64,000 bases of DNA from a virus. Its lineage: Duplodnaviria > Caudoviricetes. The stretch covers positions 462 through 64,461 of the IMG/VR virus record IMGVR_UViG_3300032282_005433; one strand, written 5' to 3'. The translations under genes were made by a program, and so were the position numbers. Below, piece after piece: positions 1-64,000 of the stretch (positions within the stretch are counted from its first letter, which is position 1; every line of letters begins with the position of its first letter). The notes under the pieces were generated by a model. That model was not told the origin of the DNA. It ran no database searches and worked only from the letters and a program-made list of their open reading frames with translations.

Positions 1-1
1 T

Positions 2-1090
2 AAAATAATTGATATTCCTTATCAAGAAGCTAAAGGAGTTTGTTGGGCAAGAAACTTGACACAACAACTTTATGATGGAGAAGAATATACACTACAAATA
101 GATTCTCATATGAGATTTGTTAAAGATTGGGATGATATTCTAATCAAGATGATAAAGGGTCTACAAAAGGATGGGTATCAAAAACCTTTACTTACGGGTT
201 ATGTCCCATCCTTTGACCCTGAAAACGACCCTGCAGGACGCTCACAAGAAGCTTGGAGAATGGTGTTTGACAGATTTATTCCTGAAGGGGCTGTATTCTT
301 TTTACCTGAGACAATTCCAGGGTGGAGAGAAATGAAAAAACCGGTAACTGCAAGGTTTTATTCTGCTCACTTTTGTTTTACTTTAGGACAATTTTCAACA
401 GAAGTTCAACATAATCCCGAATATTATTTCCACGGTGAAGAAATTTCTATTGCGGCAAGAGCATATACATGGGGATATGATTTATTTCATCCACATATTC
501 CTGTTGTTTATCACGAGTATACTCGTAAGGGTAGGACAAAACAATGGGATGATGATAAAGGTTGGGGCGAAAGAAATAGAATATCTCATTTAACTAATAG
601 AAAGTTATTTGGTATGGATGGTGAAAAACAAGAAGGTCATGATGGTTTATTTGGATTTGGACCTGTTAGGTCATTAAGGGATTATGAAAAATATTCGGGA
701 TTGCTTTTTGAAAGAAGGGCTATTCAACAATACACTATTGATAAAAAATATCCTCCAAACCCATATAATTATGCGTCAGAGGAAGAATGGAAAGAAGATT
801 TTGCTTCTGTATTTAAACATTGTATTGATGTTGGATATTCTAGTGTTCCTGAAAAGGATTATGATTTTTGGGTTGTTGCATTTCACGGACCAAATGATGA
901 AACTTTATTTAGAAAAGATTCTGATAAAAATGAAATTGATGGATATTTTAGAGACCCAGATAAGTATTGTAAAGTTTGGAGAGAATTTCAAACGGCGATA
1001 TTACCAACATATTGGGTTGTTTGGCCACACTCAGAATCAAAAGGATGGTGTGATAGAATTACAGGTCAATTAAATAATGTCGTAAGTTAA
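2..1090 (+). CDS. GT60-like (Gnt1/Gnt2-type) protein GlcNAc-transferase, 5'-partial
   Basis: The frame is open from base 2 (KIIDIPYQEAKGVCWARNLTQQLY), so the TTG at 56 is probably not the start. Motifs GVCWAR, LQIDSHMRF..DWD, YSAHFCF, F.GEEI..AAR.YT.GYD.F.P match the GT60 family. Confidence 0.75.
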   Translation, partial: KIIDIPYQEAKGVCWARNLTQQLYDGEEYTLQIDSHMRFVKDWDDILIKMIKGLQKDGYQKPLLTGYVPSFDPENDPAGRSQEAWRMVFDRFIPEGAVFFLPETIPGWREMKKPVTARFYSAHFCFTLGQFSTEVQHNPEYYFHGEEISIAARAYTWGYDLFHPHIPVVYHEYTRKGRTKQWDDDKGWGERNRISHLTNRKLFGMDGEKQEGHDGLFGFGPVRSLRDYEKYSGLLFERRAIQQYTIDKKYPPNPYNYASEEEWKEDFASVFKHCIDVGYSSVPEKDYDFWVVAFHGPNDETLFRKDSDKNEIDGYFRDPDKYCKVWREFQTAILPTYWVVWPHSESKGWCDRITGQLNNVVS

Positions 1091-1101
1091 AAACATATAT
1101 A

Positions 1102-1914
1102 ATGAAAATTAAATTAATTGATGAAAATTTAGTAGGTCAAAAAGGATTATCAAAGTACTCTGACCCCGAATCGGGATGGGAAAGAGATATTACTGATTAT
1201 GATGTTGCAATATATACTGACAACATGGGAAACACTCAACCGATAGACATTAGTAAAATAAATTGTGCTTGGATTATTGAGCCCCCTATTATTAACGGAG
1301 AAAATTATATTAAAGTCATTAACAATAAAAATAATTTTAAATATATTTTTACACATATAAAAAACATAGGAGAAAAAACTGAAAACTTTGTTTATATCCC
1401 TCATGGTGGTACTTGGATTGAAGATTCAGATATTTCAATTCATGATAAAACAAAATTAACAAGTTGTATTTTTTCTTGGAAAAATTGGAATTCATATCAT
1501 AGTATGAGATTCAGAGTTTATGATAGATTAAAAAATGATTCAAGAGTAGATTTTTATGGTAGTGGTTGTGATAAACCCATTGATAAAAAAATTAAAGCAT
1601 TAAAAAACTATAGATTTTCTATTGTAATTGAAAATAGTATTGAATCAGATTATTTTACAGAAAAATTGTTAGATTGTTTTTTAACCGGTACAATTCCTAT
1701 TTATGTCGGCTCAAGAACAACTGGCACTTACTTTGATACTAATGGTATTATATACTTTGAGGGGGACGAAGATTTACCAGAAATATTAGATAAATTAACA
1801 GAAGAATTATATTTGGAAAAATTTGAATCGGTTAAACGCAATTTTGATTTAGCAAAAAAATATATGCATCCTGAAAAAATAATTAATAAATTTTTAAAAG
1901 AAAAATTATTATGA
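1102..1914 (+). CDS. GT10-like (alpha-1,3/4-fucosyltransferase family) glycosyltransferase
   Basis: YRFSIVIENSIESDYFTEKLLDCFLTGTIPIYVG is the GT10 signature motif. Confidence 0.8.
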   Translation: MKIKLIDENLVGQKGLSKYSDPESGWERDITDYDVAIYTDNMGNTQPIDISKINCAWIIEPPIINGENYIKVINNKNNFKYIFTHIKNIGEKTENFVYIPHGGTWIEDSDISIHDKTKLTSCIFSWKNWNSYHSMRFRVYDRLKNDSRVDFYGSGCDKPIDKKIKALKNYRFSIVIENSIESDYFTEKLLDCFLTGTIPIYVGSRTTGTYFDTNGIIYFEGDEDLPEILDKLTEELYLEKFESVKRNFDLAKKYMHPEKIINKFLKEKLL

Positions 1915-2549
1915 CATATTGTTCACAATTAGGTCAGGATAGATTTATAGATGAGTTATTTAAAAAGAAGAGAAATGGGGTTTTTGTCGATATAGGGGCA
2001 AATGAAGGTGTTCAAATTTCAAATACATTATTTCTTGAAAAAGAAAGAGGATGGACTGGAATATGTATTGAACCTTTGCCTGTTGAATTTAAAAAATTAA
2101 CAGAAAACAGAAATTCAATAAATTTGAATATATGTGTTTCTGATTTTGAAGGAGAAACCGATTTTACATATGTTGAGGGTTATGCAAACATGTTATCGGG
2201 TATGTCTGACCAATATAATAAAATTCATATGGAAAGAGTTTTGGGAGAGGTAAATCATTATGGAGGTAAAATACATAATATAAGAGTACCGGTTAAAACA
2301 TTACAAAGTGTTCTTGATGAACATAACGTTTTGAATATTGATTTTTGTTCAATTGATACTGAAGGTTCTGAATTTAGTATAGTCAAATCTATTGATTTTG
2401 ATAAAACTAATATAAAAGTTTTTATTATTGAAAATAATTATAAAGAAACTAATATCAAAAATTTTCTTGAGACAAAAGGATATTCTTTGTATAATAAATT
2501 AGAATGGGATGATGTCTTTGTTAAAAATGAAATAATCAGTAATGTATAA
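1911..2549 (+). CDS. FkbM-family SAM-dependent methyltransferase
   Basis: SQLGQD, FVDIGANEG..SNT, W.GICIEP, IDFCSIDTEGSE motifs; ATGA overlap with the upstream gene. Confidence 0.9.
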   Translation: MTYCSQLGQDRFIDELFKKKRNGVFVDIGANEGVQISNTLFLEKERGWTGICIEPLPVEFKKLTENRNSINLNICVSDFEGETDFTYVEGYANMLSGMSDQYNKIHMERVLGEVNHYGGKIHNIRVPVKTLQSVLDEHNVLNIDFCSIDTEGSEFSIVKSIDFDKTNIKVFIIENNYKETNIKNFLETKGYSLYNKLEWDDVFVKNEIISNV

Positions 2550-3300
2550 TAATGTTATTATAACCGCAACAAATAGTCCTTATTTTGAATCTTTATTAAC
2601 ATTGATTAGTAGTATTCATAAAAATGGTTTAAATACGGTGGATAAAATATTGGTATATAATATAGGTTTAACAACAGATGAGATAAATCAATTATCTAAA
2701 TTAAAAAAAGTTGATTTAATCACTTTTACTGATTTTGAAATAAATCAACATCCGTTATTTTTAGAAGGTAAAAGTCATGTATATAAATGTTATTGTTTAT
2801 ACCATGCGTCAAAATTATCAAACAATGTTTTATGGATTGATTCCGGAGCATTTTTTTTAAAAGACTTTAAAATAATCTTTGATATTATTAATAATGATGA
2901 TATATTTTTAGTGGGTGATGTTCATATAAATAAAACTTATACTCATTCAAAATGTATTAAAATAATGGGGGCAACAGAATCTGAATTATCTGATAACCAT
3001 TTATCTTCAGGTGTTATTGGGTTTAAATCAAATGGTAAATATCAAAAACTTATAGATGAATCGTCATACTATTCTTTAATTGAAGGATGTTGCGATGGGG
3101 ATTATGAAAATCATAGACATGACCAAAGCGTCTTATCTATATTGGCTTCAAGATATGATTGTCAAAAACAAGACATAGACACATATGGTTATTGGACAGA
3201 TTTTAAAAGAAATTTAATAACTGCAACAGAAAGGGGTGCAGTTATTTTTGTTCATAGAAATGGACTTAATGATAAAAGTAATTTAATATATGAAGATTAA
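2542..3300 (+). CDS. putative GT-A fold glycosyltransferase (DUF1647-like)
   Basis: VIITA..S.YF, VLWIDSG and HRHDQSVLSIL motifs; lies in an overlapping GT operon. Confidence 0.6.
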   Translation: MYNNVIITATNSPYFESLLTLISSIHKNGLNTVDKILVYNIGLTTDEINQLSKLKKVDLITFTDFEINQHPLFLEGKSHVYKCYCLYHASKLSNNVLWIDSGAFFLKDFKIIFDIINNDDIFLVGDVHINKTYTHSKCIKIMGATESELSDNHLSSGVIGFKSNGKYQKLIDESSYYSLIEGCCDGDYENHRHDQSVLSILASRYDCQKQDIDTYGYWTDFKRNLITATERGAVIFVHRNGLNDKSNLIYED

Positions 3301-4012
3301 TTTTAATGAAATACCTAAGTTTGTTGTAAACTTAAAAAGAAGAGAAGATAGGCTTGAAGAGGTGAAAAAAGAATTTGAATATATGGGTTGGAGCTTTGAA
3401 AGATTTGATGCCATTGATACAAATAGCTATATTGGTTGTGGATTATCACATCAAGAAATTGCAAAAATAATTCTAGAAAGAGGTTATTCACATGCAATAG
3501 TTTTTGAAGATGATATATTTTTTATGCCGTATGCGAAAAAACTTATTGTGGAGATTGAAAAAGAATTAAACAAAATAGATTGGGACTTTTTCCATTTTGC
3601 ACCATCAATACACAGACCTTTAAATAAATTCTCAGAAAATTTAGTTGATTTAACAAATCTACCACCTAAAGACCCTATCAGACACAGAGGCATTTTTGGT
3701 ACTTCAGGATTTATTTTAACACCAAAGGCATGTGAATATATTATCAAGTGGGATACAAATGATATTATTGAAAATAGCCATAGGCAAGTACCTATTGATG
3801 AATTTTTAAATAATGGTGTATATCCAAACATTAAATCTTTTTCCGCTAAATTACCATTAATTGTTCAAAAAACAGGATACTCGGATATTAATGGAACTAT
3901 AGATTCAAACCATTATATAATGACATATAATTGGAATGTTTATTTTCCTGATAAATTAGAAAATGTTTATTTAGATTATAATAATTGTATAAAAATTAGA
4001 AATGAAAGTTAA
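3290..4012 (+). CDS. GT25-family glycosyltransferase
   Basis: FVVNLKRREDR, RFDAID, GCGLSH, AIVFEDD, PID and Q..GYSDI motifs. Confidence 0.85.
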   Translation: MKINFNEIPKFVVNLKRREDRLEEVKKEFEYMGWSFERFDAIDTNSYIGCGLSHQEIAKIILERGYSHAIVFEDDIFFMPYAKKLIVEIEKELNKIDWDFFHFAPSIHRPLNKFSENLVDLTNLPPKDPIRHRGIFGTSGFILTPKACEYIIKWDTNDIIENSHRQVPIDEFLNNGVYPNIKSFSAKLPLIVQKTGYSDINGTIDSNHYIMTYNWNVYFPDKLENVYLDYNNCIKIRNES

Positions 4013-4886
4013 ATTTATCACCGCAATATATAATAATTTGTTTGGTACCGAATTAGGAGGAAGACCAAGTAGAAAAGGACATTACAAATACAGTTTGCTA
4101 TCTTTATTAAAGATGACAGATGCAGACTTTTTATGTTATACAAATGAACAAGAGTTAAATGAGTTGGAAAATTTTTTCTATACTGAACATTTAATTTCAA
4201 AAGAACAATTACAATTTAAAATTTTTAATTTATCCAATACAAAATTTAAAGATATTATAAACAAATATAAAGATACTGAAAGTTCAAAACGTTCTGATAG
4301 ATGTATCGAAATACAATATTCAAAATTTCATTGGTGGTGGAATGAGGATAAATCTTATGATTATTATTATTGGATTGATGCCGGATTATCTCATTGTGGT
4401 TTAATACCAAATGTGTATCTACAAGGTAGTAAACATTCTGAAAGAAAATATTATGAAAGTGAGTTGTTCAACAATACATTTTTAAAAAATTTGATAAAAT
4501 TTTCGTCAGATAAATTTTTTATTATGATGAAAGATAATGTCAGAAATTATTGGTCTGGTACTGTAAACCCAAAATGGTATAATGAGTTTTGTATGGAATA
4601 TCATGTGATTGGCGGAATGTTTGGAGGCAAAAAAGAAAATTGGGATAATTTGGTTAATATATTTGAGAAATACGCCTATGATATAATAACAACAGATTAT
4701 AATATTCCAATGGAAGAAAATATTATGACTTTGATGTATTATAATCATAAGGATTTATTTTCTATAAAAACATTTGATACTTGGTGGTGTAAAGATAATG
4801 GGCCAAAAGATATGGATGAAAATTATTATGAAATAAATAAAAGTTTTTATAAAATTTTAGAAGAACTTAATAGAACATATGAGTAA
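4002..4886 (+). CDS. HtrL/YibB-like glycosyltransferase
   Basis: ITA.Y, IQYSKF.W, YYWIDAGL, IGGMFGG, EENIM motifs; paralogous to the N-terminal half of the next gene. Confidence 0.6.
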   Translation: MKVKFITAIYNNLFGTELGGRPSRKGHYKYSLLSLLKMTDADFLCYTNEQELNELENFFYTEHLISKEQLQFKIFNLSNTKFKDIINKYKDTESSKRSDRCIEIQYSKFHWWWNEDKSYDYYYWIDAGLSHCGLIPNVYLQGSKHSERKYYESELFNNTFLKNLIKFSSDKFFIMMKDNVRNYWSGTVNPKWYNEFCMEYHVIGGMFGGKKENWDNLVNIFEKYAYDIITTDYNIPMEENIMTLMYYNHKDLFSIKTFDTWWCKDNGPKDMDENYYEINKSFYKILEELNRTYE

Positions 4887-6564
4887 TATAACATTAGTAA
4901 CAGGTATTTGGGATATTGGTCGCGGAAATTTAAGCGAAGGATGGTCAAGAAATTATCAACATTATTTAGATAGATTTGAAAAACTTTTAGAAGTTGACAC
5001 AAATATGATAATATTTGGTGATGAAGAATTAAAAACTTTTGTTTCGAGCAGAAGGAATGATTCAAATACTCAATTTATTGTACGACCATTATCATGGTTT
5101 CAAAATAATGAATTTTTTGATAAAGTACAAAAAATAAGAGTGAGGGAAGATTGGTTAAGTAGGTCAGGATGGTTAAGAGATTCTACACAAGCTAAATTGG
5201 AGAATTATAATCCTCTTGTGATGTCTAAAGTATTTTTATTAAATGATGCTAAAATAATGGATAAATTTAATTCTGAATATATGTTCTGGATTGACGGAGG
5301 AATTACAAATACTGTCCATCCAGGGTATTTTACTCATGATAAAGTATTGGATAAATTATCCAAATATATTTCAAAATTTTCTTTTATTTGTTTTCCTTAT
5401 GGAGCTGAAACTGAAATTCATGGTTTTGAATATAATAAATTAAATTCAATTGCCGGAAATAAAGTAAATAAAGTTGCCAGAGGTGGATTTTTTGGAGGTC
5501 CAAAAAATACAATATCTGATATAAATGGAATTTATTATAATCTATTAAAATCTACATTAGATGAAGGTTATATGGGAACTGAAGAAAGTATATTTTCCAT
5601 TATGGTGTATAGGCATTCTGATTTGATAAATTATTTTGAAATAGAATCAAATGGGTTAATTGGTAGGTTTTTTGAAGATTTAAAAAACGATACTTTATTA
5701 GTTAAAAGTGAAAATCAAATTAGTCCCGTTAATGAAGTAACCAATAATTTAGATGTTAATAAATGTGGATTATATGTTATAACATTCAATAGTCCAAAAC
5801 AATTTAGAACTTTAATTGACTCAATGTTGGCTTATGATAAAGATTATATAATAAAAACAAAAAAATTTTTATTAGATAATTCATCTGATTTATCAACCAC
5901 AGAAGAATATTTGGAGATTTGTAAAGAATTTAATTTTGAACATATTAAAAAAGATAATTTAGGTATTTGTGGGGGTAGACAATGGATTGCTGAACATTTT
6001 GAAAATACAGATTTAGATTATTATTTATTTTTTGAAGATGATATGTTTTTTTACCCAACAGAAGGTAAAGTATGTAGAAATGGGTTTAATAGATACACTC
6101 CAAACTTATATACCAAGTCATTAGAAATAATGAAAAAAGAAAATTTTGATTTCCTAAAATTAAATTATTCCGAATTTTTTGGAGATAATGGAACTCAATG
6201 GTCATGGTATAATGTACCACAAAATGTTAGAAGTGAATTTTGGCCAAGTAAAACAAGGTTACCAGAAACAGGATTAGACCCAAATGCGCCAAAAACACAA
6301 TTTAATAAAATATTATCATATAACGGTATACCATATGCGGTTGGTGAAATTTATTATTGTAATTGGCCTCAAATAGTTAGTAGAACAGGAAATAAAAAAA
6401 TGTTTTTAGATATTACATGGGCTCACCCTTTTGAACAAACTTGGATGAGTCATATGTACCAATTGGTTAAAAAAGACGAATTAAACCCTGGAATATTACT
6501 TATGACTCCCACAGAACATAATAGATTTGAACATTACGACAGGGGGCTTAGAAAAGAGTCATAA
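4879..6564 (+). CDS. two-domain glycosyltransferase (HtrL-like N-terminus plus GT2-like C-terminus)
   Basis: N-half: ITLVTG.WDIGR, MSKVFLL, FWIDGG, RGGFFGG, GTEESIF. C-half: YVITFN, LLDNSS, NLGICGGR, YLFFEDD. Confidence 0.65.
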   Translation: MSNITLVTGIWDIGRGNLSEGWSRNYQHYLDRFEKLLEVDTNMIIFGDEELKTFVSSRRNDSNTQFIVRPLSWFQNNEFFDKVQKIRVREDWLSRSGWLRDSTQAKLENYNPLVMSKVFLLNDAKIMDKFNSEYMFWIDGGITNTVHPGYFTHDKVLDKLSKYISKFSFICFPYGAETEIHGFEYNKLNSIAGNKVNKVARGGFFGGPKNTISDINGIYYNLLKSTLDEGYMGTEESIFSIMVYRHSDLINYFEIESNGLIGRFFEDLKNDTLLVKSENQISPVNEVTNNLDVNKCGLYVITFNSPKQFRTLIDSMLAYDKDYIIKTKKFLLDNSSDLSTTEEYLEICKEFNFEHIKKDNLGICGGRQWIAEHFENTDLDYYLFFEDDMFFYPTEGKVCRNGFNRYTPNLYTKSLEIMKKENFDFLKLNYSEFFGDNGTQWSWYNVPQNVRSEFWPSKTRLPETGLDPNAPKTQFNKILSYNGIPYAVGEIYYCNWPQIVSRTGNKKMFLDITWAHPFEQTWMSHMYQLVKKDELNPGILLMTPTEHNRFEHYDRGLRKES

Positions 6565-6569
6565 CAATA

Positions 6570-6576
6570 TATTTAT
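6570..6576 (+). promoter_or_regulatory. TATTTAT upstream motif (candidate phage promoter), 4 nt before ATG
   Basis: TATATTTATTGTT-ATG(6581); the same heptamer precedes many genes in the window. Confidence 0.5.
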
Positions 6577-6580
6577 TGTT

Positions 6581-6958
6581 ATGGAATTTTTTATCAAAAA
6601 GAATGCAACTTTGCCTGTTTTAAAAATGCAAGTTGTTAAAGACGGTAGAAGCGGATATGACCAATTCATGAATGATTTGATAATATCATCAATTTATTTT
6701 TCAATGATTGATGTTCAAACCGGAATACCTAAAATTGTTTCGGCCCCTGCAGATATTGTCGGATTACTTTTACCTGAAGGTTCAACAACTGAATATTACA
6801 TATATTTTAAATTTACAAGTAGAGATACAAATACCCCTGGAAGATACCAAGGTCAATTTTTAATTAAAAATGATGAAGGAAATCTTATATTACCATTAAG
6901 AGAAGAATTGTATATTAATATTCAAGATTCATTTATTTCTGAAACTGCTTGTTGTTAA
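6581..6958 (+). CDS. BppU-N-like Ig-fold virion protein
   Basis: Better start is the ATG at 6581 (MEFFIKKNATLPVL). F.IK...T.P.L and DT..PG.Y.G.F.I patterns resemble BppU N-terminal domains. Confidence 0.5.
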   Translation: MEFFIKKNATLPVLKMQVVKDGRSGYDQFMNDLIISSIYFSMIDVQTGIPKIVSAPADIVGLLLPEGSTTEYYIYFKFTSRDTNTPGRYQGQFLIKNDEGNLILPLREELYINIQDSFISETACC

Positions 6959-6990
6959 TTTGATTAATCAAAATCATTTTTTATATTTAT
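6959..6990 (+). promoter_or_regulatory. candidate host-RNAP promoter of the DNA polymerase gene
   Basis: TTTG(6959)-N19-TATATTTA(6982) fits the Bacteroidota -33/-7 layout; also readable as TTGATT-N16-TATATT. The upstream element lies inside the perfect palindrome TTTGATTAATCAAA (6959-6972). Confidence 0.55.
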
Positions 6991-6997
6991 TTATTAA

Positions 6998-7032
6998 GGT
7001 TAACTTCACTATAATGTGAAAGCTAATGAACC
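6998..7032 (+). promoter_or_regulatory. stem-loop in the DNA polymerase leader
   Basis: GGTT..TTCAC-TATAAT-GTGAA..AACC, ending 17 nt before the ATG. Confidence 0.4.
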
Positions 7033-7049
7033 ATTTTAAATAAACTATT

Positions 7050-9836
7050 ATGATATCTAACGAAGAGATTGAATCATTCCTATTAGGTAATGACCCCGAA
7101 GAATTTATTGTAGCAATCGAATTTGACTACTTATCTAATTCAATTTACAAAATCAAAGAAATTCCTGGTAAAGGAAAAGAAATTAGAAAAGACACATTTA
7201 TCCCATTTGCTTGGGTTGGTGATTTACGCGGACTAAAGTTTTATAATGACTCCAAAGGAGTTCAGAAAGAAGCCATGACTAAGTATGGTATTATGATTGA
7301 GAAATTAGAAACTCATGATAATGAAAGGCTTAATAATGGTATGACTTTTATGGTTAAATCATTAAAAGGTTATAGAGAGTTAATTCAATTTTTTAGGGAT
7401 GGTGGATGTGACCCTTGGGGTGATAGGGCAAAAGATAAAATTATAATTCTACCTCCTGTAGAACAATATTTAATTGCAAGAGAAAAAAGATTATTTAAAG
7501 GATTTGAAGATTACAATCAAATTACTCGACTTGTATTTGACTTGGAAACAACTTCATTAGAACCTGAAAATGGTCAGATATTCATGATTGGTATAAAAAC
7601 CAATAAAGGGTATCATAGGGTTATTGAATGTATTGATGAGGACCAAGAAAAGGGTGCAATTATAGAATTCTTCAAGGTTATTGATGAGTTAAAACCAAGT
7701 ATTATTTCGGGTTATAATTCAGCAAACTTCGACTGGCATTGGATATTTGAAAGATGTAGAATTTTAAAGATTGACCCTAAAAAGATTTGTAAATCTTTAC
7801 ACCCCCAACATTCGTTTACAAGAAAAGATAGTATGTTAAAACTTGCCAACGAGGTTGAAAATTTTGTTCAGACATCGATATGGGGTTATAATAGTATTGA
7901 TATTATTCATGCTGTTCGTAGAGCTCAAGCGATTAATTCAAGTATTAAGAGTGCTGGTTTGAAATACATTACAAAATATATTAAATCGGAATCTGCAGAC
8001 CGAGTTTATATTGAACATGAGAATATTGGTAAAATGTATACTAACAAAGAAGAATATTGGTTGAATGTTACTAATGGTAATTACAAAAAAGCAACAGAGT
8101 ATACTGATTTAGATATAAAGTTCCCTGGAATATATCAGAAAATAACAGGGGATAAGTTGGTTGAAATGTATCTTGATGATGACTTGGATGAAACTTTAAA
8201 AGTTGACCATGAGTTTAATCAGGCATCGTTTTTGTTAGCTTCGATGATTCCAACAACATATGAAAGGGTTTCTACAATGGGTACTGCAACATTATGGAAA
8301 ATGTTAATGTTGGCTTGGTCTTATAAACATAATTTGGCCATTCCCGCAAAACAAGGTAAAACTGATTTTGTCGGTGGTTTATCTAGATTGTTAAAAGTGG
8401 GATACTCAAAGAATGTTTTAAAACTTGACTTTAGTTCACTATATCCATCAATCCAATTGGTTCATGATGTATTTCCTGAATGTGATGTTACGGGGGCGAT
8501 GAAAGGAATGTTAAAGTATTTTAGAGATACCCGTATCAAATACAAAGAACTTGCGGAAAAGTATTATACTACTGACCCTGAAAAGTCTGCGTCATACGGT
8601 AACAAACAATTACCGATTAAGATATTCATTAACTCAATGTTCGGTGCGTTATCGGCACCTCAAGTTTATGCTTGGGGGGATATGTTTATGGGAGAACAAA
8701 TTACCTGTACAGGTAGACAATATCTTCGTCAAATGATTAAATTCTTTATGTCTCGTGGATATACCCCTCTGGTGATGGATACGGATGGTGTAAACTTCTC
8801 ATCTCCTGATAACGTGGATGAACACACGTATATTGGTAGGGGTCTAAATTGGAAGGTTAAAGAGGGTTTAGAATATACTGGTCCTGAAGCGGATGTGGCA
8901 GAATATAACGATATTTTTATGAGAGGTGAAATGGCTCTTGATACTGATGGTGTTTGGCCGTCATGTATTAATTTGGCTCGTAAGAATTATGCGGTAATGG
9001 ATTCAAAAGGAAAAATAAAATTGACAGGTAATAGTATTAAATCAAAAAAACTTCCTTTATATATTGAAGAATTTTTGGATATTGGAATTAAGTTTTTATT
9101 ACAAGGAGACGGGAAATCATTTGTAGAATATTACTACGAGTACCTACAGGTAATATTTGATAAAAAAATACCGTTAAGTAAAATCGCACAAAGAGCTAAA
9201 GTTAAATTAACTCTTGATGATTATAAAAAAAGGTTATCAACTAAGACTAAATCCGGTAATAGTATGAGTAGAATGGCTCATATGGAACTTGCAATACAAA
9301 ATAACTTGAGTGTTAACTTAGGAGATGTTATTATGTATGTTAATAACGGAACTAAAGCATCTCAGGGTGATGTTCAAAAGATGACTGTAAAACAAATAAA
9401 AGATACAAACGCCGTTAATTTATTTAACAATCCAAAATCTAAACCTATCACAGATGGTGTAATGGTTAATTGTTATATGTTAGATAAAGATATTTTGGAT
9501 ACAGACCCTAAGTTAACTGGAGATTATAATGTACCAAGAGCAATTGCAACATTTAATAAAAGAATTGAACCTTTAATGGTTGTTTTTAAAGATGAAGTTA
9601 GAAATGGATTAATTGTTAGTGACCCTGCCGAAAGAGGTATATTTACAACGTCCCAATGTGAACTTATAAATGGACATCCATTAGACGAAGGTTCTCAAGA
9701 TAGTTTAGAAGAAGTTATGACATTATCTGACGGGGAAATATCTTACTGGGAAAAAAGAGGCCTTGATTCAAATTATATGTATAAATTGGCTGAAGAAGGC
9801 TGGGAAGATAAATTAAGATTGCTTCAACCCGTCTGA
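7050..9836 (+). CDS. family B DNA polymerase with 3'-5' exonuclease
   Basis: ExoI FDLETT, ExoII GYNSANFD, motif A DFSSLYPS, motif B KIFINSMFG, motif C MDTDG. Confidence 0.95.
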   Translation: MISNEEIESFLLGNDPEEFIVAIEFDYLSNSIYKIKEIPGKGKEIRKDTFIPFAWVGDLRGLKFYNDSKGVQKEAMTKYGIMIEKLETHDNERLNNGMTFMVKSLKGYRELIQFFRDGGCDPWGDRAKDKIIILPPVEQYLIAREKRLFKGFEDYNQITRLVFDLETTSLEPENGQIFMIGIKTNKGYHRVIECIDEDQEKGAIIEFFKVIDELKPSIISGYNSANFDWHWIFERCRILKIDPKKICKSLHPQHSFTRKDSMLKLANEVENFVQTSIWGYNSIDIIHAVRRAQAINSSIKSAGLKYITKYIKSESADRVYIEHENIGKMYTNKEEYWLNVTNGNYKKATEYTDLDIKFPGIYQKITGDKLVEMYLDDDLDETLKVDHEFNQASFLLASMIPTTYERVSTMGTATLWKMLMLAWSYKHNLAIPAKQGKTDFVGGLSRLLKVGYSKNVLKLDFSSLYPSIQLVHDVFPECDVTGAMKGMLKYFRDTRIKYKELAEKYYTTDPEKSASYGNKQLPIKIFINSMFGALSAPQVYAWGDMFMGEQITCTGRQYLRQMIKFFMSRGYTPLVMDTDGVNFSSPDNVDEHTYIGRGLNWKVKEGLEYTGPEADVAEYNDIFMRGEMALDTDGVWPSCINLARKNYAVMDSKGKIKLTGNSIKSKKLPLYIEEFLDIGIKFLLQGDGKSFVEYYYEYLQVIFDKKIPLSKIAQRAKVKLTLDDYKKRLSTKTKSGNSMSRMAHMELAIQNNLSVNLGDVIMYVNNGTKASQGDVQKMTVKQIKDTNAVNLFNNPKSKPITDGVMVNCYMLDKDILDTDPKLTGDYNVPRAIATFNKRIEPLMVVFKDEVRNGLIVSDPAERGIFTTSQCELINGHPLDEGSQDSLEEVMTLSDGEISYWEKRGLDSNYMYKLAEEGWEDKLRLLQPV

Positions 9837-10148
9837 ACTTAAAATATACCAACTACCTCCACAAAATCTAAATTCAACACAAGCGTATCTGTCCAATAAA
9901 ATTTCATCATAGTCTTCATCAATTCTATTAACATCAGGTCTTATTGTTGTTCTAATCATTGATTTAACAACAATATGGTCTGTTGTTTTTGAATTTAAAA
10001 TAACTATAGATTCCGATACTCCCATCGTTATAATACAATCTTCTCCGTTTGTACTATATTCTAATTCGGAAATTAATGATACTTCTGAAGTGTTAATTAT
10101 TTCTCCGTTAATAATTTTTTGTGCGGGTATTGTTCTTATTATTGCCAT
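9813..10148 (-). CDS. hypothetical protein, probably virion-associated
   Basis: 111-aa ORF immediately downstream of the neck gene on the same strand; 24-nt convergent overlap with the polymerase 3' end. Confidence 0.6.
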   Translation of the reverse strand: MAIIRTIPAQKIINGEIINTSEVSLISELEYSTNGEDCIITMGVSESIVILNSKTTDHIVVKSMIRTTIRPDVNRIDEDYDEILLDRYACVEFRFCGGSWYILSSDGLKQS

Positions 10149-13091: not shown

Positions 13092-13492
13092 TAAATTAAT
13101 TTAGTATGAGGCCTATCTTTCCAATAAAATTCATCACCATAAAAAACAAAAATTTCTTCGTCTGATTGAATGTCTTTAATTGAAAAAAATTCAAGTGTTT
13201 TGTTTATGTAGTTTGCCTTCCACCTTGCACTTGGATTAGTACTATGGTTATAAAGACTACCAAATCCTAAACAAATAACTTGTTCTGTCCATTGATTAGT
13301 TTCTGGAGGCCAATTAAATGTGTAGTCAAATAAAATATTATTATTAATATATTCTTGAGGTGTAACATCTAAACGTATCAAAGGGCATTCTTCTATTAAT
13401 TCTCCTTTTTTTATGAATTTAGATGAAAAAACCCCCAATCCATGTATAGTACTTTTAGATACATATGTTTTATTTGACGGTAAAATCTTCAT
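13091..13492 (-). CDS. SET-domain protein lysine methyltransferase
   Basis: Start reassigned to ATG at 13492 (MKILPSNK). S.IHG.GVF...I.KGE.IE, YNHS..P, I.DI...EEI...YG motifs; TAATG overlap with the SNF2 start. Confidence 0.9.
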   Translation of the reverse strand: MKILPSNKTYVSKSTIHGLGVFSSKFIKKGELIEECPLIRLDVTPQEYINNNILFDYTFNWPPETNQWTEQVICLGFGSLYNHSTNPSARWKANYINKTLEFFSIKDIQSDEEIFVFYGDEFYWKDRPHTKLI

Positions 13493-13522
13493 AAAAAACT
13501 TTGAGTTAATTATAACAATAAT

Positions 13523-59036: not shown

Positions 59037-61172
59037 ATGGCGGCATTTAATTATCAAATATCAACAACAGGAGATTGTTCAAATTCTTTAACAGGAATAA
59101 TATCAATATTACCGTATGGAGGAACTCCACCATATACGGTAGATTGGCAAAGTCCTAATTTAGGTGTAGATACAACTACTTTAGTACCTTCAGTTAGAAC
59201 AGGATTAAGTGGAGGAACATATGCACTTCGTTTAAATGATAGTACTATACCGGTTAACCAACAATTTTATGTGAATATACCGGTGTCTGATGGAGTTTGC
59301 TGTAACATACTTGGTGTGAATAGTACTTCTTGTAGTTTAGATAATGGCTCAGTAACAGGAACATCAACTTCAAATTATTCTTCTACTAATTTTTATTTAT
59401 TTGATTATACTGATACATATATCACATCAGGAGTAACAAATACCTCAACAATTATTTTTGGAAATTTAAGTGCTTCAACATATTATTTAATTGCTGAAGA
59501 TTTGGGAGGATGTACTGGACAAAGCCAAACATTTATAATTGAAGAATCGGAACCTTTTGATTTTGGATTATATGTTGTACCAAACTCAAGTTGTGGAGGA
59601 ACACCAATAGGTAAAATATATGTTACAGGTCAAACAGGTGTTTCACCATATTCGTATTATTGGAGTAATGGAGAAACAGGTAGTACAATAACCGGATTAA
59701 CTTCTGGAAATTATTCAGTTCAAGTAATTGATGGTTTGGGATGTTCTAAAACTGAAAGTGCTCTTATAGAAGATGTACCTAGTGTGGGTTTTGGTCTTTT
59801 TACGGTAACACCACCTACTTGTTTTGCAAGCGACGGTGTTATTAATCTAACAATAACAGGAGGAACTGCTCCATATTACTATTCAGCCTCAACAGGATAT
59901 TTTGAAATTTCATATAGTAAAACGTTTACTTTAGGTGGATTGTCTTCGGGACAATATGATTTTTTAGTAACAGATTCAGGTCTTTGTACTTTCCAAGTTG
60001 GAACAACATTAAATACACCACAAGGAATTACTTCAGTTAATGTTACTACTCAAAATTCTACGTGTTCAAGTACTGATGGTTCTATAACGGCAGTAGTTAT
60101 TGGAGGTACAACACCATACACATACACATTAATTAATCCTGAGGGAAACACATTAGTGATTAGTACTTCTCAAGCTACACAAGTATTTTCAAATTTAGAG
60201 TCTGGAACATATACAATTTCAGTTCAAGATGCTAACGGTTGTGTTTTTATACAGGAAACCACAATAATAGCTGAAAATAAATTTACAATTTCAACATCAA
60301 CCACACCAACAACTTGTGCACAAAATAATGGTATTATTGATGTAACTAGAACAACAGGAGGTACTGCACCTTTTGATTTTTCTTTAGATGGTGTAATTAA
60401 TATTATTGATACCAATCTTTATACGGTATCATTTACAAATGTCGCATCTGGTCAGCACACAATAACAGTAACAGACGCTGTTGGATGTGCACAGACATCT
60501 CAAGTATATGTGAGCGGAAGTTCACTTGTTGACTTTACATTATATAGTACTTCTTGTGGTAATGGTTCTGATGGTACAATTACCGCTCTTATTACTTCTG
60601 GAGTGCCACCATTTAGTTTTGATTGGTCGGATAATGTTGATTCAAATCCACAACAAATACAAGTATCAAATCTTACTGCAGGGACATACAGTTTGACTGT
60701 TATGGATAGTAATTCATGTTCATTATATAGAACAGTTTCAATTGATTGTTCTGCTTTATATACATCTTATCAAACATATGCAATGGGATGTGAAGTATTT
60801 CAAGTGGAATCACCAAGTAAATACGGATTACCACAAATGTTAAATGAAGGATTTTTTGATTTAACATCAGGTAATACAAACTGTGATTTAATTTCTGCAA
60901 TTTTTATTGCAAAAGTTTCAGTACAACCATTGGGAACTATTGTGACTCAACCTTTTTATACGGCAACTACACTATCATCAGCACCTAGCGATAACTTATG
61001 GTATGATGAAATACAAAATCTATTACTTGGAATTCCAGGGATTGGTTCTGTAACTATAGATGCTCTTAATAATCAAATAACAATAACAACAAGTACAATA
61101 AATCCTATTCTTAATAATCAAGAAATAATTATAGAATTAATTATTGTATATGATATTATGTGTTTAACATGA
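59037..61172 (+). CDS. SprB-repeat Ig-like fibre/adhesin protein
   Basis: About seven repeats of C....G.I.....GG..PY.Y.......L..G.Y...V.D..GC; no signal peptide. Confidence 0.8.
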   Translation: MAAFNYQISTTGDCSNSLTGIISILPYGGTPPYTVDWQSPNLGVDTTTLVPSVRTGLSGGTYALRLNDSTIPVNQQFYVNIPVSDGVCCNILGVNSTSCSLDNGSVTGTSTSNYSSTNFYLFDYTDTYITSGVTNTSTIIFGNLSASTYYLIAEDLGGCTGQSQTFIIEESEPFDFGLYVVPNSSCGGTPIGKIYVTGQTGVSPYSYYWSNGETGSTITGLTSGNYSVQVIDGLGCSKTESALIEDVPSVGFGLFTVTPPTCFASDGVINLTITGGTAPYYYSASTGYFEISYSKTFTLGGLSSGQYDFLVTDSGLCTFQVGTTLNTPQGITSVNVTTQNSTCSSTDGSITAVVIGGTTPYTYTLINPEGNTLVISTSQATQVFSNLESGTYTISVQDANGCVFIQETTIIAENKFTISTSTTPTTCAQNNGIIDVTRTTGGTAPFDFSLDGVINIIDTNLYTVSFTNVASGQHTITVTDAVGCAQTSQVYVSGSSLVDFTLYSTSCGNGSDGTITALITSGVPPFSFDWSDNVDSNPQQIQVSNLTAGTYSLTVMDSNSCSLYRTVSIDCSALYTSYQTYAMGCEVFQVESPSKYGLPQMLNEGFFDLTSGNTNCDLISAIFIAKVSVQPLGTIVTQPFYTATTLSSAPSDNLWYDEIQNLLLGIPGIGSVTIDALNNQITITTSTINPILNNQEIIIELIIVYDIMCLT

Positions 61173-61561
61173 GACAGATAAGAATAACAGAAATATCGGG
61201 TGGTAAATATCCTGTATCGGTTTATATTGCGGATATTTATGGTAACAATCAAACATTGATTGGGGCCGTACCTTCTGGGCCAGTACCACCAACAATAACA
61301 TATAATACTACCATTCCAACTATTTTTGAAACAGCATCAGAAGTGATGCTTTTATTAATTGATGGGGATGGATGTCAAGTTTTTCGAATTTTAGAGTGTA
61401 CATCATTTTGTTCTTTTGCAATCACAATTGAATTGGCTACGTGTACAATGGAAATTATTATTGGACCAAATCCGACACCAACTCCGACACCAACGCCAAC
61501 ACTAACTTCAACACCAATGCCAACACCGGACAATACTCCAACGCCAACGCCAACTATTTAA
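61169..61561 (+). CDS. small virion protein with C-terminal Pro-Thr tract
   Basis: ATG at 61169 overlaps the upstream TGA (ATGA); ends PNPTPTPTPTPTLTSTPMPTPDNTPTPTPTI. Confidence 0.7.
   Translation: MRQIRITEISGGKYPVSVYIADIYGNNQTLIGAVPSGPVPPTITYNTTIPTIFETASEVMLLLIDGDGCQVFRILECTSFCSFAITIELATCTMEIIIGPNPTPTPTPTPTLTSTPMPTPDNTPTPTPTI
61466..61555 (+). repeat. (Pro-Thr)n coding repeat
   Basis: Degenerate CCNACN hexamer array. Confidence 0.9.
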
Positions 61562-61695: not shown

Positions 61696-62712
61696 ATGAC
61701 AACATACATTATAACAGTCGTAAATAATACACCAGGTTGTGCTAATACAGTAGAACAAGAAGTTACTGTAGATTGTTGTTCAACATACATTGTCAGACTT
61801 GACCCAGCGTCAAATGCAATCGGTCCATTTAGTGTTTATATTGATGATGTCCTTTTTGGTTCTGGATATTCAAGAACTGAAATGATTGACGGTGTTGTTA
61901 TTACTTTACAATGTGTAACACCAAGTCCAACACCAACACCAACAGTAACACCTGAAACTCCAACACCAACACCTACTGAAACTATTACTCCAACACCAAC
62001 TGTTACAATAGGATTAACTCCAACACCAACCGAAACTGTTCCAGCAACTCCAACTCCAACACCTACGATAACTAATACACCAACTCCTAGCGGTTCTATG
62101 TATAGTGCTTATATCTTCCCTGAACCACAAGACAGTACTTCTCAAAATGATTTAGGTCAATATATGTATGACGGTGGGTCAAATAATTATTATGGATATA
62201 CAAATAGTGGTGGACCTGCTGGGGGACCAAGTTATAGTTCTGATTTAGCAATATATGTTCAATATCCTGGATGGTCAGGTTCAAGTGGTAGTTTTGTTAC
62301 AAATGTTGCAACTCTGGCAGGTAGTATTAAACAATCTCCTGGCGTTGGAACTGACACTTATGGATGTGTTCAAAATCAGTATGCATTCGGTAGCATTCCA
62401 ATAACAACTTCAAATGTAAATGTTAATATACAATATGTTTATACTGTTTGGGTTCCACTTGATGGAGTCGGAGGAACATTAAATAATATGACACTTAATG
62501 TTGGTAGTGGTGGACCTTGTATATCTACAATAGTTGATGGTGGAATACCTGATACAACAAATGCGGGAATTAATGTTTCAGTTCCTTCAGGATGTGCAAT
62601 ACCTTCAGGAAACTATAGAGTTCTATGGATACTTGAATTGTATTTACTTCCCGCATTGGCAAATATACCATTTAATTCTACTTTATGGATAAAAGGTAAT
62701 ACAAAATCATAA
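61696..62712 (+). CDS. virion protein with mucin-like Pro-Thr linker
   Basis: A 58-aa TPSPTPTPTVTPETPTPTP... linker separates two Cys-containing beta-rich domains. Confidence 0.75.
   Translation: MTTYIITVVNNTPGCANTVEQEVTVDCCSTYIVRLDPASNAIGPFSVYIDDVLFGSGYSRTEMIDGVVITLQCVTPSPTPTPTVTPETPTPTPTETITPTPTVTIGLTPTPTETVPATPTPTPTITNTPTPSGSMYSAYIFPEPQDSTSQNDLGQYMYDGGSNNYYGYTNSGGPAGGPSYSSDLAIYVQYPGWSGSSGSFVTNVATLAGSIKQSPGVGTDTYGCVQNQYAFGSIPITTSNVNVNIQYVYTVWVPLDGVGGTLNNMTLNVGSGGPCISTIVDGGIPDTTNAGINVSVPSGCAIPSGNYRVLWILELYLLPALANIPFNSTLWIKGNTKS
61918..62091 (+). repeat. (Thr-Pro)n coding repeat
   Basis: ACACCA/ACTCCA hexamer array. Confidence 0.9.
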
Positions 62713-62736: not shown

Positions 62737-64000
62737 ATGTCATTTCCATATAAAAATCCATTAACATCCTATCAATTAGGGGCTTCAAATAGTGTATCAA
62801 GAACTAGTACTTTTGGTACTAATTTTTCTATATTAAGTACTGGTGGATATATGGAGGTTTACTATCTAAGTGACCTTTTGTTGACATTGACGGCAACAAC
62901 ATACCCGTCAATAATACAGTTATCCGCAAATACAATACCAATCGCATTTACTAAAGGAACTGGCTCGGCCTTTTCTCCAGATGTTATTAATTTAAATTCG
63001 GATAATATTTCAAGTGGAAGAAGAAGATTAGGAATGCAAGTTTATGTCCAGGAAACCGATACGGTATATCAATATGTTATAACAAATTATCAAGAATTAT
63101 GGAATAATTTATCTGGTCTTACAGGTAATTCTGGAGTAACAATGACAGACTATTCTACAGTAGTTAATAGTCGTTCACAAGAAGGGGAGGATTTTATTAG
63201 TGCTTGGACAGCTTCAACAATTGAAGGATATAATGGTGTAGAAAGAAATAACGCTAGATGGAGAATAGTTCAAGGGACTGATATTCAAATTACAGGAGGA
63301 ACGTATTTTTCGGGAACTCAAATTTTAGATTTATATAATAGTACAGGAGGAACTATTGTAATTACTGGATTTACAGGTACGGTTACAGGAGGAACTTATG
63401 ATAGTGGAACTTCAACTTTAACATTAAATAATAGTGATGGTACTCAGGTTTCTGTTACAGGTATTACATCAGGAGGAAGTCCTCTTACAGTATACGACTC
63501 TACATCTGGAGTAACAGCAACAAGTGTTACAGGTATAACATTTGATGGTGCTTCTGTTGTTGATAATGGAAATGGAAATATTACAGTAACAATGACTGGT
63601 GGAACTTCAGGTAGTTCTGGTTCATCAGGAACTAGCGGAACGGACGGCACTTCAGGTTCTTCAGGAACTAGCGGAACGGACGGCACATCAGGTTCTTCAG
63701 GAACAAGTGGTACGGATGGTACATCAGGTTCATCAGGAACTTCTGGTTCATCAGGAACATCAGGTACAGATGGTACTTCAGGTACTTCAGGTTCTTCAGG
63801 TACTAGTGGAACAGAAGGCACTTCAGGTTCTTCAGGAACTAGCGGAACAGATGGTACAAGTGGTTCTTCAGGAACTAGTGGAACAGACGGCACTTCAGGT
63901 TCTTCAGGAACTAGTGGAACAGATGGTACAAGTGGTTCTTCAGGAACTAGTGGAACAGATGGTACAAGTGGTTCTTCAGGAACTAGTGGAACAGATGGTA
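62737..64000 (+). CDS. fibre-like protein with Gly-X-Y (Ser/Thr) repeat, 3'-partial; not in the ORF track
   Basis: Translated manually from ATG 62737 (MSFPYKNPLTSYQLG...RRRLGMQVYVQET...) with no stop to the window end; from 63601 reads GTS GSS GSS GTS GTD GTS GSS... Confidence 0.9.
   Translation, partial: MSFPYKNPLTSYQLGASNSVSRTSTFGTNFSILSTGGYMEVYYLSDLLLTLTATTYPSIIQLSANTIPIAFTKGTGSAFSPDVINLNSDNISSGRRRLGMQVYVQETDTVYQYVITNYQELWNNLSGLTGNSGVTMTDYSTVVNSRSQEGEDFISAWTASTIEGYNGVERNNARWRIVQGTDIQITGGTYFSGTQILDLYNSTGGTIVITGFTGTVTGGTYDSGTSTLTLNNSDGTQVSVTGITSGGSPLTVYDSTSGVTATSVTGITFDGASVVDNGNGNITVTMTGGTSGSSGSSGTSGTDGTSGSSGTSGTDGTSGSSGTSGTDGTSGSSGTSGSSGTSGTDGTSGTSGSSGTSGTEGTSGSSGTSGTDGTSGSSGTSGTDGTSGSSGTSGTDGTSGSSGTSGTDGTSGSSGTSGTDG
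63601..64000 (+). repeat. 9-bp/36-bp tandem repeat encoding GTSGTDGTSGSS
   Basis: GGAACTAGTGGAACAGATGGTACAAGTGGTTCTTCA is exact at 63907-63942 and 63943-63978 and partial from 63979; earlier copies are synonymous variants. Confidence 0.95.

Follow-up and report, generated by a model that had tools for sequence, protein, structure and literature searches.

A GT60-led gene island in an uncultured freshwater jumbo myovirus, a probable cytoplasmic O-glycosylation system for the phage's own Pro-Thr proteins

A compact island of seven genes, led by a glycosyltransferase of family GT60, opens a 64,000-nucleotide stretch of viral DNA (hereafter the window; bases 462-64461 of the 64,461-bp IMG/VR virus record IMGVR_UViG_3300032282_005433, CheckV completeness 21%). 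The source is an uncultured T4-like jumbo myovirus of about 320 kb from freshwater. The island probably carries out mucin-type O-glycosylation of proteins in the cytoplasm, its substrates being the phage's own proteins with proline-threonine (Pro-Thr) tracts. The initial annotation, made from the window alone, had described seven tightly packed and mostly overlapping genes, and this layout holds: seven plus-strand open reading frames (ORFs) occupy positions 2-6564, with spacings of 11, -4, -8, -11, -11, and -8 nt (Table 1).

The window begins inside the lead gene. On the contig, the full gene encodes 420 aa (L002:289-1551; L-numbers denote extracted loci of relatives and bacteria, and L002 is this contig), its start lying 173 nt upstream of the window. 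The proposal that this ORF is GT60-like was borne out by the profile PF11397, which the window part matches with 183.8 bits against a cut-off of 21 and the whole gene with 186 + 33.7 bits; the full-length orthologue in G001, a complete relative with 338 ORFs, matches at 4.6e-66 (224.1 bits). Searches of PDB by sequence, with the single sequence and with a profile, returned no match. The AlphaFold model (pLDDT 94.7) adopts a GT-A fold, and in Foldseek searches with VIA re-alignment its top 29 PDB entries were all polypeptide GalNAc-transferases (Z 19.3-22.0 over about 270 residues; rmsd 3.3-6.0, and 3.3-4.0 in 28 of them), with generic GT-A enzymes ranking after these GT27 entries (Z <= 16.9). 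By family match and fold ranking, the enzyme therefore belongs to GT60 and shares the build of those that start mucin-type O-glycan chains. Residues D92, H94, E204, E205, R211, and H229 are invariant among 41 homologues (36-89% identity), and by analogy D92-x-H94 and H229 may serve in metal binding. The model also contains a C-terminal, beta-rich extra domain of about 90 residues (326-414). Expectation from the family would make the enzyme a retaining transferase of N-acetylglucosamine (GlcNAc) from UDP-GlcNAc onto polypeptide. The PF11397-like family itself is large: a threshold of E <= 1e-3 collects 4,442 clusters, some with proteins in which the domain stands two to four times in tandem, and the family extends to uncultured tailed phages, Megaviridae, and Pandoravirus; homologues of the present enzyme number more than 7,000 in the protein collection.

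The lineage is abundant: IMG/VR contains 449 loci related to the GT60 gene, and counts for related phage loci below refer to the best 80 of these (83-96% identical). Comparison of their gene neighborhoods separated a conserved core from a variable middle. The lead gene and the last gene of the island, a two-domain HtrL fusion, occur together at 80/80 loci, with fusion identities of 51-83%, and the HtrL-like gene preceding the fusion (orf6) recurs in 66 relatives. By contrast with this constancy, the spacer between GT60 and the fusion measures anything between 1.55 and 6.8 kb and falls into 16 size classes; a spacer of about 1.6 kb, holding a GT25-like gene and orf6, is found at 54 loci. The GT25 gene of the window has matches of 33-42% identity in 60 relatives and the GT10 gene weak ones (28-38%) in seven, and at none of the 80 loci is there a match (E <= 1e-5) to the FkbM or the DUF1647-like gene. 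Spacers of relatives encode their own assortments, with glycosyltransferases of the GT10, GT11, GT25, PLOD-GT, GT34, GT7C, RXYLT1-like, and GT2 types, a nucleotidyltransferase of the haloacid dehalogenase (HAD) type, and FkbM, TylF, CmcI, and other methyltransferases. Contigs from two sequencing runs of two studies join position 1073/1074 directly to 3302-3314 with 24-37 other letters between, from which it follows that relatives without the three-gene insert co-occur with this strain. Only these joints were taken as evidence, and not the low depth that contigs of four DNA runs show across 1321-4290.

The same core recurs well beyond the closest relatives. Phages XacN1, Xoo-sp13, and RAS14 carry the trio of GT60 (45-49% identity), orf6 (26-31%), and full-length fusion (40-41%), a carbamoyltransferase standing between the trio genes in the Xanthomonas/Stenotrophomonas phages, and in one further viral contig the fusion lies directly before GT60. 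Scans for distant viral lineages yielded none with P0142 and one locus with P0176. Bacteria show the pairing too: 25 of 78 loci, from several phyla, have a full-length homologue of the fusion no more than 2.5 kb from GT60. In 24 of these pairs both genes share a strand, and about a dozen pairs are separated by 50 nt or less. Since the pairing is kept while the spacer varies, GT60 and its HtrL-type partners constitute a system with a strain-specific middle. Judged from sequence conservation, GT60 together with the HtrL-like protein and the HtrL fusion makes up the conserved system; FkbM, the DUF1647-like gene, and GT10, three of the seven genes of the initially annotated pathway, do not belong to it.

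Beyond the island, four sets of glycosylation genes, about twenty genes in all, were observed in G001, namely the GT60 island and three more. The first of the extra islands encodes a GT2_5+GT4 fusion, GT2, FkbM, GT11, TylF, GT10, two short-chain dehydrogenase/reductase (SDR) nucleoside diphosphate (NDP)-sugar enzymes, GT1, and GT2; the second a UDP-galactopyranose mutase and GT2; and the third GT9, a 1,229-aa FkbM-GT1-GT9 fusion, and FkbM. The genome also has two carbamoyltransferases, a sulfotransferase-like gene, and an adenosine phosphosulfate (APS) kinase; the coordinates for these extra features are L091:2112-14515, L098:11800-15297, L102:14422-19717, and L094:3465-6729. Away from the GT60 island, relatives thus encode SDR-type NDP-sugar enzymes, GT11, UDP-galactopyranose mutase, and carbamoyltransferases.

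For the remaining island genes, profile searches recovered the GT10, FkbM, GT25, and HtrL (4879-6564) families as annotated. The GT10 ORF matches the solved FUT9 (3.2e-11) and Helicobacter pylori FucT (8.3e-6), and the GT25 ORF matches COLGALT1 (7.3e-8) and mimivirus R655 (5.1e-4). The DUF1647-like motif is weak, lying below the Pfam cut-off (23.7 versus 25.7 bits), and this ORF has no match among PDB sequences. The HtrL-like label of orf6 is a mixed case: the ORF has no Pfam match and none in PDB by sequence, and the assignment rests on BLASTP to the neighboring fusion together with its Atlas cluster. The fusion exceeds the PF09612 cut-off clearly (65.5 versus 24.1 bits), misses the NCBIfam YibB equivalog (70.1 versus 264.9), and has no PDB match by sequence; a Rossmann-like unit containing an EDD motif is modelled for its second half, although the model is poor. 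Its Foldseek matches (LH3, LARGE1, mimivirus R699, K4CP, and PmHS2) reach a TM-score of only about 0.2. A polymerase-like reading of the fusion, which such matches do not support, was dropped, and from this low-confidence model we would describe the protein as two putative GT-A-like domains and no more.

Table 1. Features of the island, its downstream neighbors, and candidate acceptors (window coordinates)
Feature	Position	Strand	Evidence
GT60-like initiating glycosyltransferase (putative), 3' 363 codons	1..1090	+	PF11397 8.6e-54; phrog_24687 1.4e-136
GT10-type (alpha-1,3/4-fucosyltransferase family), strain-specific accessory	1102..1914	+	PF00852 C-terminal domain, 2e-13
FkbM-family methyltransferase, strain-specific accessory	1911..2549	+	PF05050 1.4e-19; TIGR01444 3.1e-17
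Probable GT-A glycosyltransferase (DUF1647/GT8-like), strain-specific accessory	2542..3300	+	PF07801 4.3e-5; GT8 0.03
GT25-family glycosyltransferase, common but diverged cassette member	3290..4012	+	PF01755 3.8e-18
HtrL-like putative glycosyltransferase (orf6), conserved core	4002..4886	+	BLASTP to next gene 1e-4; Atlas HtrL_YibB cluster 0.97
Two-domain HtrL_YibB + GT-A-like fusion (HtrL2), 561 aa	4879..6564	+	PF09612 7.8e-18, residues 3-252
Small conserved ORF, 124 aa, after the island	6584..6958	+	67-96% identity in relatives wherever DNA reaches
Family B DNA polymerase	7050..9836		Next large gene after the island
Candidate acceptor, 133 aa, ~30-residue Pro-Thr tract at end	61160..61561	+	83% Ser/Thr/Pro in 30-residue window
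Candidate acceptor, 338 aa, ~60-residue Pro-Thr tract after small Cys-containing module	61696..62712	+	83% Ser/Thr/Pro in 30-residue window
Collagen-like (GTS/GSS) tail-fibre gene, open at window end	62737..63999	+	PF01391 7.6e-18; tail-fibre PHROGs

No 19-residue window in any of the seven products exceeds a Kyte-Doolittle value of 1.18, so that neither a signal peptide nor a membrane anchor is apparent, as the initial annotation had noted, and all seven look soluble by sequence. This bears on a different use of the same enzymes, in which the island would remodel an envelope glycan of the host (lipopolysaccharide (LPS), capsule, or host glycoproteins), for instance to block superinfection or alter adsorption. 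GT25, HtrL, and GT10 are indeed best known from LPS or O-antigen loci, HtrL being named after the LPS-core region of Escherichia coli, and conserved flanks around a variable middle are typical of O-antigen loci. Against this, besides the lack of a membrane segment in any of the seven products, families of polyprenyl-phosphate transferases, flippases, polymerases, or ligases did not turn up in a Pfam survey of the 338 ORFs of G001 (E <= 1e-4), polypeptide transferases and not lipid- or glycan-acting GT-A enzymes come nearest to the lead enzyme, and the association with Pro-Thr genes described below would go unexplained. We regard envelope remodeling as improbable.

Sugar hypermodification of the phage DNA as a defense against restriction, as in T4, RB69, and the 5-hydroxymethylcytosine (5hmC) glycosyltransferase clusters, would suit the location of the island beside a DNA polymerase gene both here and in XacN1, the weak phrog_842 match of the fusion (7.6e-4), and the carbamoyltransferases and UDP-galactopyranose mutase of relatives; phage DNA glycosyltransferases have also been recruited from LPS-type families, according to the available text of bioRxiv 10.1101/2023.12.21.572611. 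The genes for a base-modification route are, however, wanting in the three complete relatives in which they were sought. Each encodes a single ThyA homologue, that of G001 passing the thymidylate-synthase equivalog (302.8 bits versus 108), and because ThyA keeps both D169 and N177 (SVD...PFNIASY), it is neither an N177D dCMP enzyme nor a 5-hydroxy-dCMP synthase of the D169N type (described in the available portion of PMC13326640). A C5-cytosine methylase (PF00145) was found in 0/3; Tet/JBP (PF12851) was likewise found in 0/3, a blank that we do not count since its control was silent everywhere. With the fold of the lead enzyme and the Pro-Thr association both pointing to protein, a DNA target appears most improbable. 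The initial annotation had named host LPS or capsule and DNA as the substrates that would speak against its proposal, and the complete relatives are without the parts needed for either.

We therefore return to phage proteins as the substrate. The initial annotation had pointed to acceptors in the same window, and both kinds of repeat are present: Pro-Thr tracts in two adjacent genes and GTS/GSS repeats in the collagen-like tail-fibre gene after them (Table 1). Nothing ties the latter repeats to the island, and the fibre is a possible acceptor at most. In the 133-aa Pro-Thr protein (61160-61561), no signal peptide was seen in the sequence; the G001 homologue of its neighbor (61696-62712) has 208 tract residues. 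Directly before these two genes, positions 59037-61172 encode a SprB-repeat protein with 27% Ser+Thr and weak matches to Hoc-like head-decoration proteins, possibly a decoration or adhesin protein and another acceptor.

Co-occurrence of GT60 with such tract genes had been set as a test beforehand, and it was found in phages and bacteria alike. At 76/80 related phage loci, one to four Pro-Thr-tract ORFs lie upstream of GT60 on the same strand, the nearest usually ending 64-97 nt before it; the four loci without one have less than 1 kb of upstream DNA, and all 57 loci with at least 3 kb have one. Downstream flanks carry none at any of the 80 loci. In G001, tracts of 48-397 residues occur in 9/338 ORFs, about 1,700 tract residues in total, in addition to three collagen-like fibres; two of the nine directly precede GT60, and three abut the GT9/FkbM-GT1-GT9/FkbM island. 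In XacN1, Xoo-sp13, and RAS14, a giant ORF with a Pro/Thr/Ser tract stands at a distance of 8-9 kb from GT60, and a Pro-Thr-tract gene is also near the GT60 homologue of one further viral contig.

Where the glycosylated products would reside is a separate question. The Pro-Thr proteins consist of small Cys-containing modules joined by linkers, and they match no annotated structural family, which makes their placement in the virion a guess. The same enzymes might thus glycosylate Pro-Thr proteins that are soluble or cell-bound and released at lysis as adhesive, decoy, or matrix-binding mucin-like material. The modular build, the missing structural-family match, and the distribution of the tract ORFs among six sites of G001, which are not confined to tail modules, favor such a role. 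Yet the Pro-Thr genes of the window stand at the end of a baseplate/fibre module beside the SprB-repeat protein with Hoc-like matches, one Pro-Thr protein of G001 itself bears a SprB repeat, the Pro-Thr partner of GT60 in one phage-like contig has a crAss muzzle domain, and glycoproteins were seen in purified XacN1 virions (available text of PMC5852040). A non-virion destination is, on balance, unlikely.

Bacterial homologues provide a second line of evidence. Tract-bearing ORFs occur in 32 of the 78 bacterial GT60 loci, and in 17 of them, from at least ten taxonomic groups, such an ORF lies within about 600 nt of GT60. As a control, we used 20-kb recA-centred windows from the same genomes; of 42 genomes, 39 gave pairs, three being dropped because of no recA match, a recA gene at a contig end, or a control overlapping the test locus. 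A Pro-Thr ORF was present in 18/39 GT60 loci versus 2/39 controls (Fisher p = 4.9e-5, which overstates the case because the loci are not phylogenetically independent), or, counted by ORF, in 21/633 versus 2/709. The spread of Pro-Thr partners over phyla is independent of that p-value. The 37 bacterial tract ORFs comprise nine VgrG proteins of type VI secretion systems (T6SS; Burkholderiales), five Rv2525c-like glycoside-hydrolase-like proteins (Sphingomonadaceae and Actinomycetota), three PqqD-like proteins (Gemmatimonadota), two kumamolisin-type proteases, one protein each with a type IX secretion system (T9SS) sorting domain, a crAss muzzle domain, and a laminin-G-type lectin domain, one major facilitator superfamily (MFS) transporter, and 14 of no family.

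Two of these arrangements merit description in their own right. At 15/78 loci, versus 0/40 control windows, GT60 has a VgrG gene 4-6 kb away, and tract-bearing VgrG genes beside a short GT60 homologue were observed at L120, L141, L149, L151, L154, L162, L165, L167, and L178; in L167:15075-17564 (minus strand), the VgrG C-terminus is about 100 residues of pure (PT)n. Such tails may be glycosylated. In Gemmatimonadota, a protein of about 240 aa combining a PqqD-like (peptide-recognition) part with a Pro-Thr tract directly precedes GT60 and the fusion (L115:8510-9235, L118:9230-9955, and L123:9155-9874), which may represent a glycosylated peptide or a system resembling that of ribosomally synthesized and post-translationally modified peptides (RiPPs).

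The bacterial comparison also informs the notion that GT60 modifies a cytoplasmic host protein during takeover, or makes a free oligosaccharide or small-molecule glycoside, with the Pro-Thr genes as bystanders. A precedent exists in Dictyostelium, where the cytoplasmic GT60 enzyme Gnt1 modifies a single regulatory protein, Skp1, and G001 has three oxygenases of the prolyl 4-hydroxylase (P4H) type. The Skp1-type hydroxyproline route was nevertheless set aside: these P4H-like genes (PF13640) are elsewhere in G001, and by tblastn they occur near GT60 in 0/80 phage and 1/78 bacterial loci. Several extending transferases and methyltransferases in one cassette speak, moreover, for a long glycan on an exposed surface, and the Pro-Thr enrichment would be left unexplained; we judge this notion very unlikely.

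Taken with the conserved core, glycosylation of the phage's own Pro-Thr proteins can be laid out as a mechanism. The soluble GT60 enzyme would transfer the first sugar from a UDP-sugar, probably an N-acetylhexosamine (HexNAc) by family analogy, onto Thr (or Ser) of the Pro-Thr tracts. The conserved HtrL-like protein and the two-domain fusion would then extend it, and the variable cassette would finish the chain, with GT10 probably adding fucose and the FkbM O-methyltransferase, the GT8-like enzyme, and GT25 contributing as well. The resulting glycoproteins would probably be appendage or decoration proteins of the particle. The initial annotation had given the order as initiate, extend, cap, and methylate; we infer this order, as we do the acceptor, the sugars, and the virion location. 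Because the cassette is strain-variable, related strains would carry different glycans on the same scaffold.

Several observations weigh against this account. The contig is a fifth of its genome, so the DNA-route genes were sought in its complete relatives. In the window, the phage's own Pro-Thr genes are about 55 kb from GT60; the contig ends at an adjoining upstream ORF which, here and in the closest relative, is a 69-aa version of the first module of the Pro-Thr proteins and stops where the tract would begin. The adjacency in phages, being inherited within the lineage, amounts to one event. Eight of the nine tract proteins of G001 match only phrog_15511 (function unknown), probably through the low-complexity tract, and none matches an annotated structural family. 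The capsid protein of G001 is not among its nine tract-bearing ORFs, and the tail tube and sheath have no Ser/Thr/Pro-rich tails (peaks of 0.33 and 0.47 Ser/Thr/Pro in 30-residue windows). Pro-Thr linkers are common in secreted proteins of Bacteroidota and may be plain linkers. On the bacterial side, nine of the 37 partners belong to a single, probably inherited Burkholderiales VgrG arrangement, which is convergent to GT60 and outside its operon, and the T9SS-domain partner is exported, as its sorting domain indicates, which fits a cytoplasmic enzyme poorly. As for the enzymes, we know of no established activity for HtrL proteins, and the fusion model is of low confidence (pLDDT 66, poor past residue ~390). 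With these points counted, the initial observations of the island remain largely right and their interpretation as phage-protein glycosylation the best available account.

A broader generalization is possible, though we hold it as doubtful: GT60 and the two-domain HtrL fusion may form a widespread, undescribed module of prokaryotes and phages by which Pro-Thr tracts receive mucin-like O-glycans in the cytoplasm. The module would act on proteins of extracellular structures assembled inside the cell, such as phage fibre or decoration proteins and the (PT)n tails of Burkholderiales VgrG. In freshwater jumbo phages, the cassette would set a glycan 'serotype' for each strain, its diversity being maintained by an arms race at the surface of the particle.

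The assignment of the source genome draws on both the window and its relatives. Complete relatives measure 317-326 kb, with terminal repeats in one, and carry T4-type capsid, portal, and terminase genes. The window encodes a tail sheath, tube, and baseplate proteins (gp25-, J-, and hub-like), together with gp32, a UvsX-like recombinase, RNase H, a DnaB-like helicase, a class II ribonucleotide reductase, and the DNA polymerase. GC content is about 30%, the DNA runs in which pieces of this sequence occur carry freshwater, lake, or river metagenome labels, no RNA run is listed for positions 1-9900 of the window, and megablast of 20 kb against cultured phages gave no match. The host is probably a member of the Bacteroidota, a prediction based on SprB repeats and on a T9SS sorting domain and SusC-like barrel encoded by G001. 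The genes concerned in G001 are a T9SS C-terminal sorting-domain protein (L095:7239-9146) and a SusC/TonB-type outer-membrane barrel (L093:6060-9335); further host-like genes encode a ClpB-like protein of the AAA family (L093:795-2810), DnaJ (L101:2227-3147), and ClpP (L094:7387-8064). This set recalls the 'moraphages' of PMC12619734, as far as its available text describes them.

Downstream of the island, the initial annotation had placed a BppU-like structural gene, which was not confirmed. The 124-aa ORF in question has no Pfam (E <= 0.1), PHROG, or NCBIfam match, and its Atlas cluster (0.95) offers a weak lead, with BppU_N (PF10651) in 16% of members and recognition below the usual level. 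The small ORF and then the DNA polymerase follow the fusion in relatives wherever the DNA reaches; a homologue of the small ORF was not found in the Xanthomonas/Stenotrophomonas phage loci.

Upstream, a hairpin followed by a T run (AAACCCTTCAAATTTTGAAGGGTTT + T7) was observed at L002:232-262, some 200-230 nt before the first base of the window. This terminator-like element stands between the 69-aa ORF and GT60, and because a GC-containing hairpin with a T run precedes GT60, the island may have its own transcript start. The T4 late motif TATAAATA is not enriched in the window (16 found versus 17.6 expected). Many start codons are preceded, at a distance of 10-40 nt, by a TATTTAT(A/T) motif that may mark phage promoter classes: TATTTATA precedes the genes at 19985, 21485, 44366, 46782, and 55148, this A-ending form being mostly before structural genes, and TATTTATT precedes those at 7050, 36719, 41679, 43610, and 61696, this T-ending form being mostly before replication genes. 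The motif is not clearly present before GT60. G001 carries its own sigma factor gene.

Other parts of the window hold further peculiarities. A SET-domain protein (13091-13564, minus strand; PF00856, 8.4e-15) comes directly after an SNF2-family helicase gene (11334-13091, minus strand), a chromatin-type pair that is unusual for a phage and is also kept in G001. Three giant ORFs of the tail/baseplate region (23493-28550, 28863-35660, and 46782-51524; 1,685, 2,265, and 1,580 aa) have no Pfam or PHROG match, and the 2,265-aa product has a Ser/Thr/Pro-rich stretch near residue 2168.

Phage self-glycosylation has been treated as rare, and the present lineage appears to invest in it heavily, as its 449 loci and the four glycosylation islands of G001 suggest. 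If our account is right, mucin-type O-glycosylation with an initiator resembling the polypeptide GalNAc-transferases (ppGalNAc-T) exists in bacteria and their viruses, lake phage particles bear glycan coats that differ from strain to strain and could influence how they adsorb, aggregate, are grazed, and decay, and the Pro-Thr 'linkers' of many bacterial proteins, VgrG tails included, may be glycosylated. Literature searches on GT60 in phages returned no such system, one virome paper merely listing GT60 among its CAZy hits; those on jumbo-phage glycosyltransferases and glycoproteins returned only XacN1 as relevant, and those on VgrG glycosylation in type VI secretion nothing relevant by title or abstract among the matches listed.

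Among known systems, the closest is that of XacN1, Xoo-sp13, RAS14, and CM1, which share the GT60/HtrL-like/fusion core, beside the DNA polymerase in XacN1. These phages differ in their hosts, which are Gammaproteobacteria, and in their cassette, a carbamoyltransferase in place of the GT10/FkbM/GT8-like/GT25 set. The available text of PMC5852040 reports at least two Schiff-stained glycoprotein bands in purified XacN1 virions and suggests the glycosyltransferases ORF328 and ORF334 as their makers; in that text, the bands are not assigned to proteins, ORF334 is not called GT60, and the acceptors are unnamed. Our searches identify ORF334 as the GT60 homologue.

Relatives of the lead enzyme are established in eukaryotes. 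Among protist GT60 enzymes, Dictyostelium Gnt1 acts on the hydroxyproline of Skp1, and Dictyostelium GntB and the Trypanosoma cruzi enzymes act on Thr/Ser of mucins. The phage enzyme shares PF11397, the GT-A fold with DxH, and the link to Thr/Pro-rich acceptors, and like cytoplasmic Gnt1 it is a soluble form. It is set apart by being encoded in phages and many bacteria, by the extra C-terminal beta domain of about 90 residues, by a partner that is the HtrL fusion instead of Skp1-pathway enzymes, and by having no adjoining prolyl hydroxylase. The GT27 polypeptide GalNAc-transferases of metazoans and apicomplexans, although nearest among solved structures and alike in DxH, the distal His, and the presence of an extra C-terminal domain, are only 10-15% identical in sequence, and the phage enzyme comes without their membrane anchor or Golgi context.

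Virus-encoded glycosylation of virus proteins is already known from chloroviruses, mycobacteriophages, and XacN1. The glycosyltransferases of mycobacteriophages act in the cytoplasm on phage proteins, with shielding proposed as the role (Freeman et al. 2023, as cited in the available text of PMC12619734); the glycans there are on the C-termini of capsid and tail-tube subunits, whereas the candidates here are long Pro-Thr tracts in separate modular proteins. Giant viruses (chloroviruses and mimiviruses) similarly combine soluble transferases, sugar methyltransferases, and nucleotide-sugar enzymes of their own without a secretory pathway, much as G001 has SDR-type NDP-sugar enzymes, GT10/GT11, and a UDP-galactopyranose mutase, and GT60-like and HtrL-like proteins appear in Megaviridae and Pandoravirus sets; the present system differs in its prokaryotic host and in candidate acceptors that are Pro-Thr tracts, not the major capsid protein. 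A bacterial counterpart is found in the serine-rich-repeat adhesins of Gram-positive bacteria, made by GtfA/GtfB and variable extending transferases. There, as proposed here, O-HexNAc initiation in the cytoplasm on a long low-complexity Ser/Thr tract is followed by strain-variable extension; the initiator there is a GT-B (GT4) pair with an accessory Sec system, and here a GT-A enzyme of GT60 with no export system. Set against the known cases of virus-encoded glycosylation of virus proteins, what differs in the present island is its enzyme family, the ppGalNAc-T-like GT60, its candidate mucin-like Pro-Thr acceptors, a GT60-HtrL module common to many bacteria, and a hypervariable cassette.

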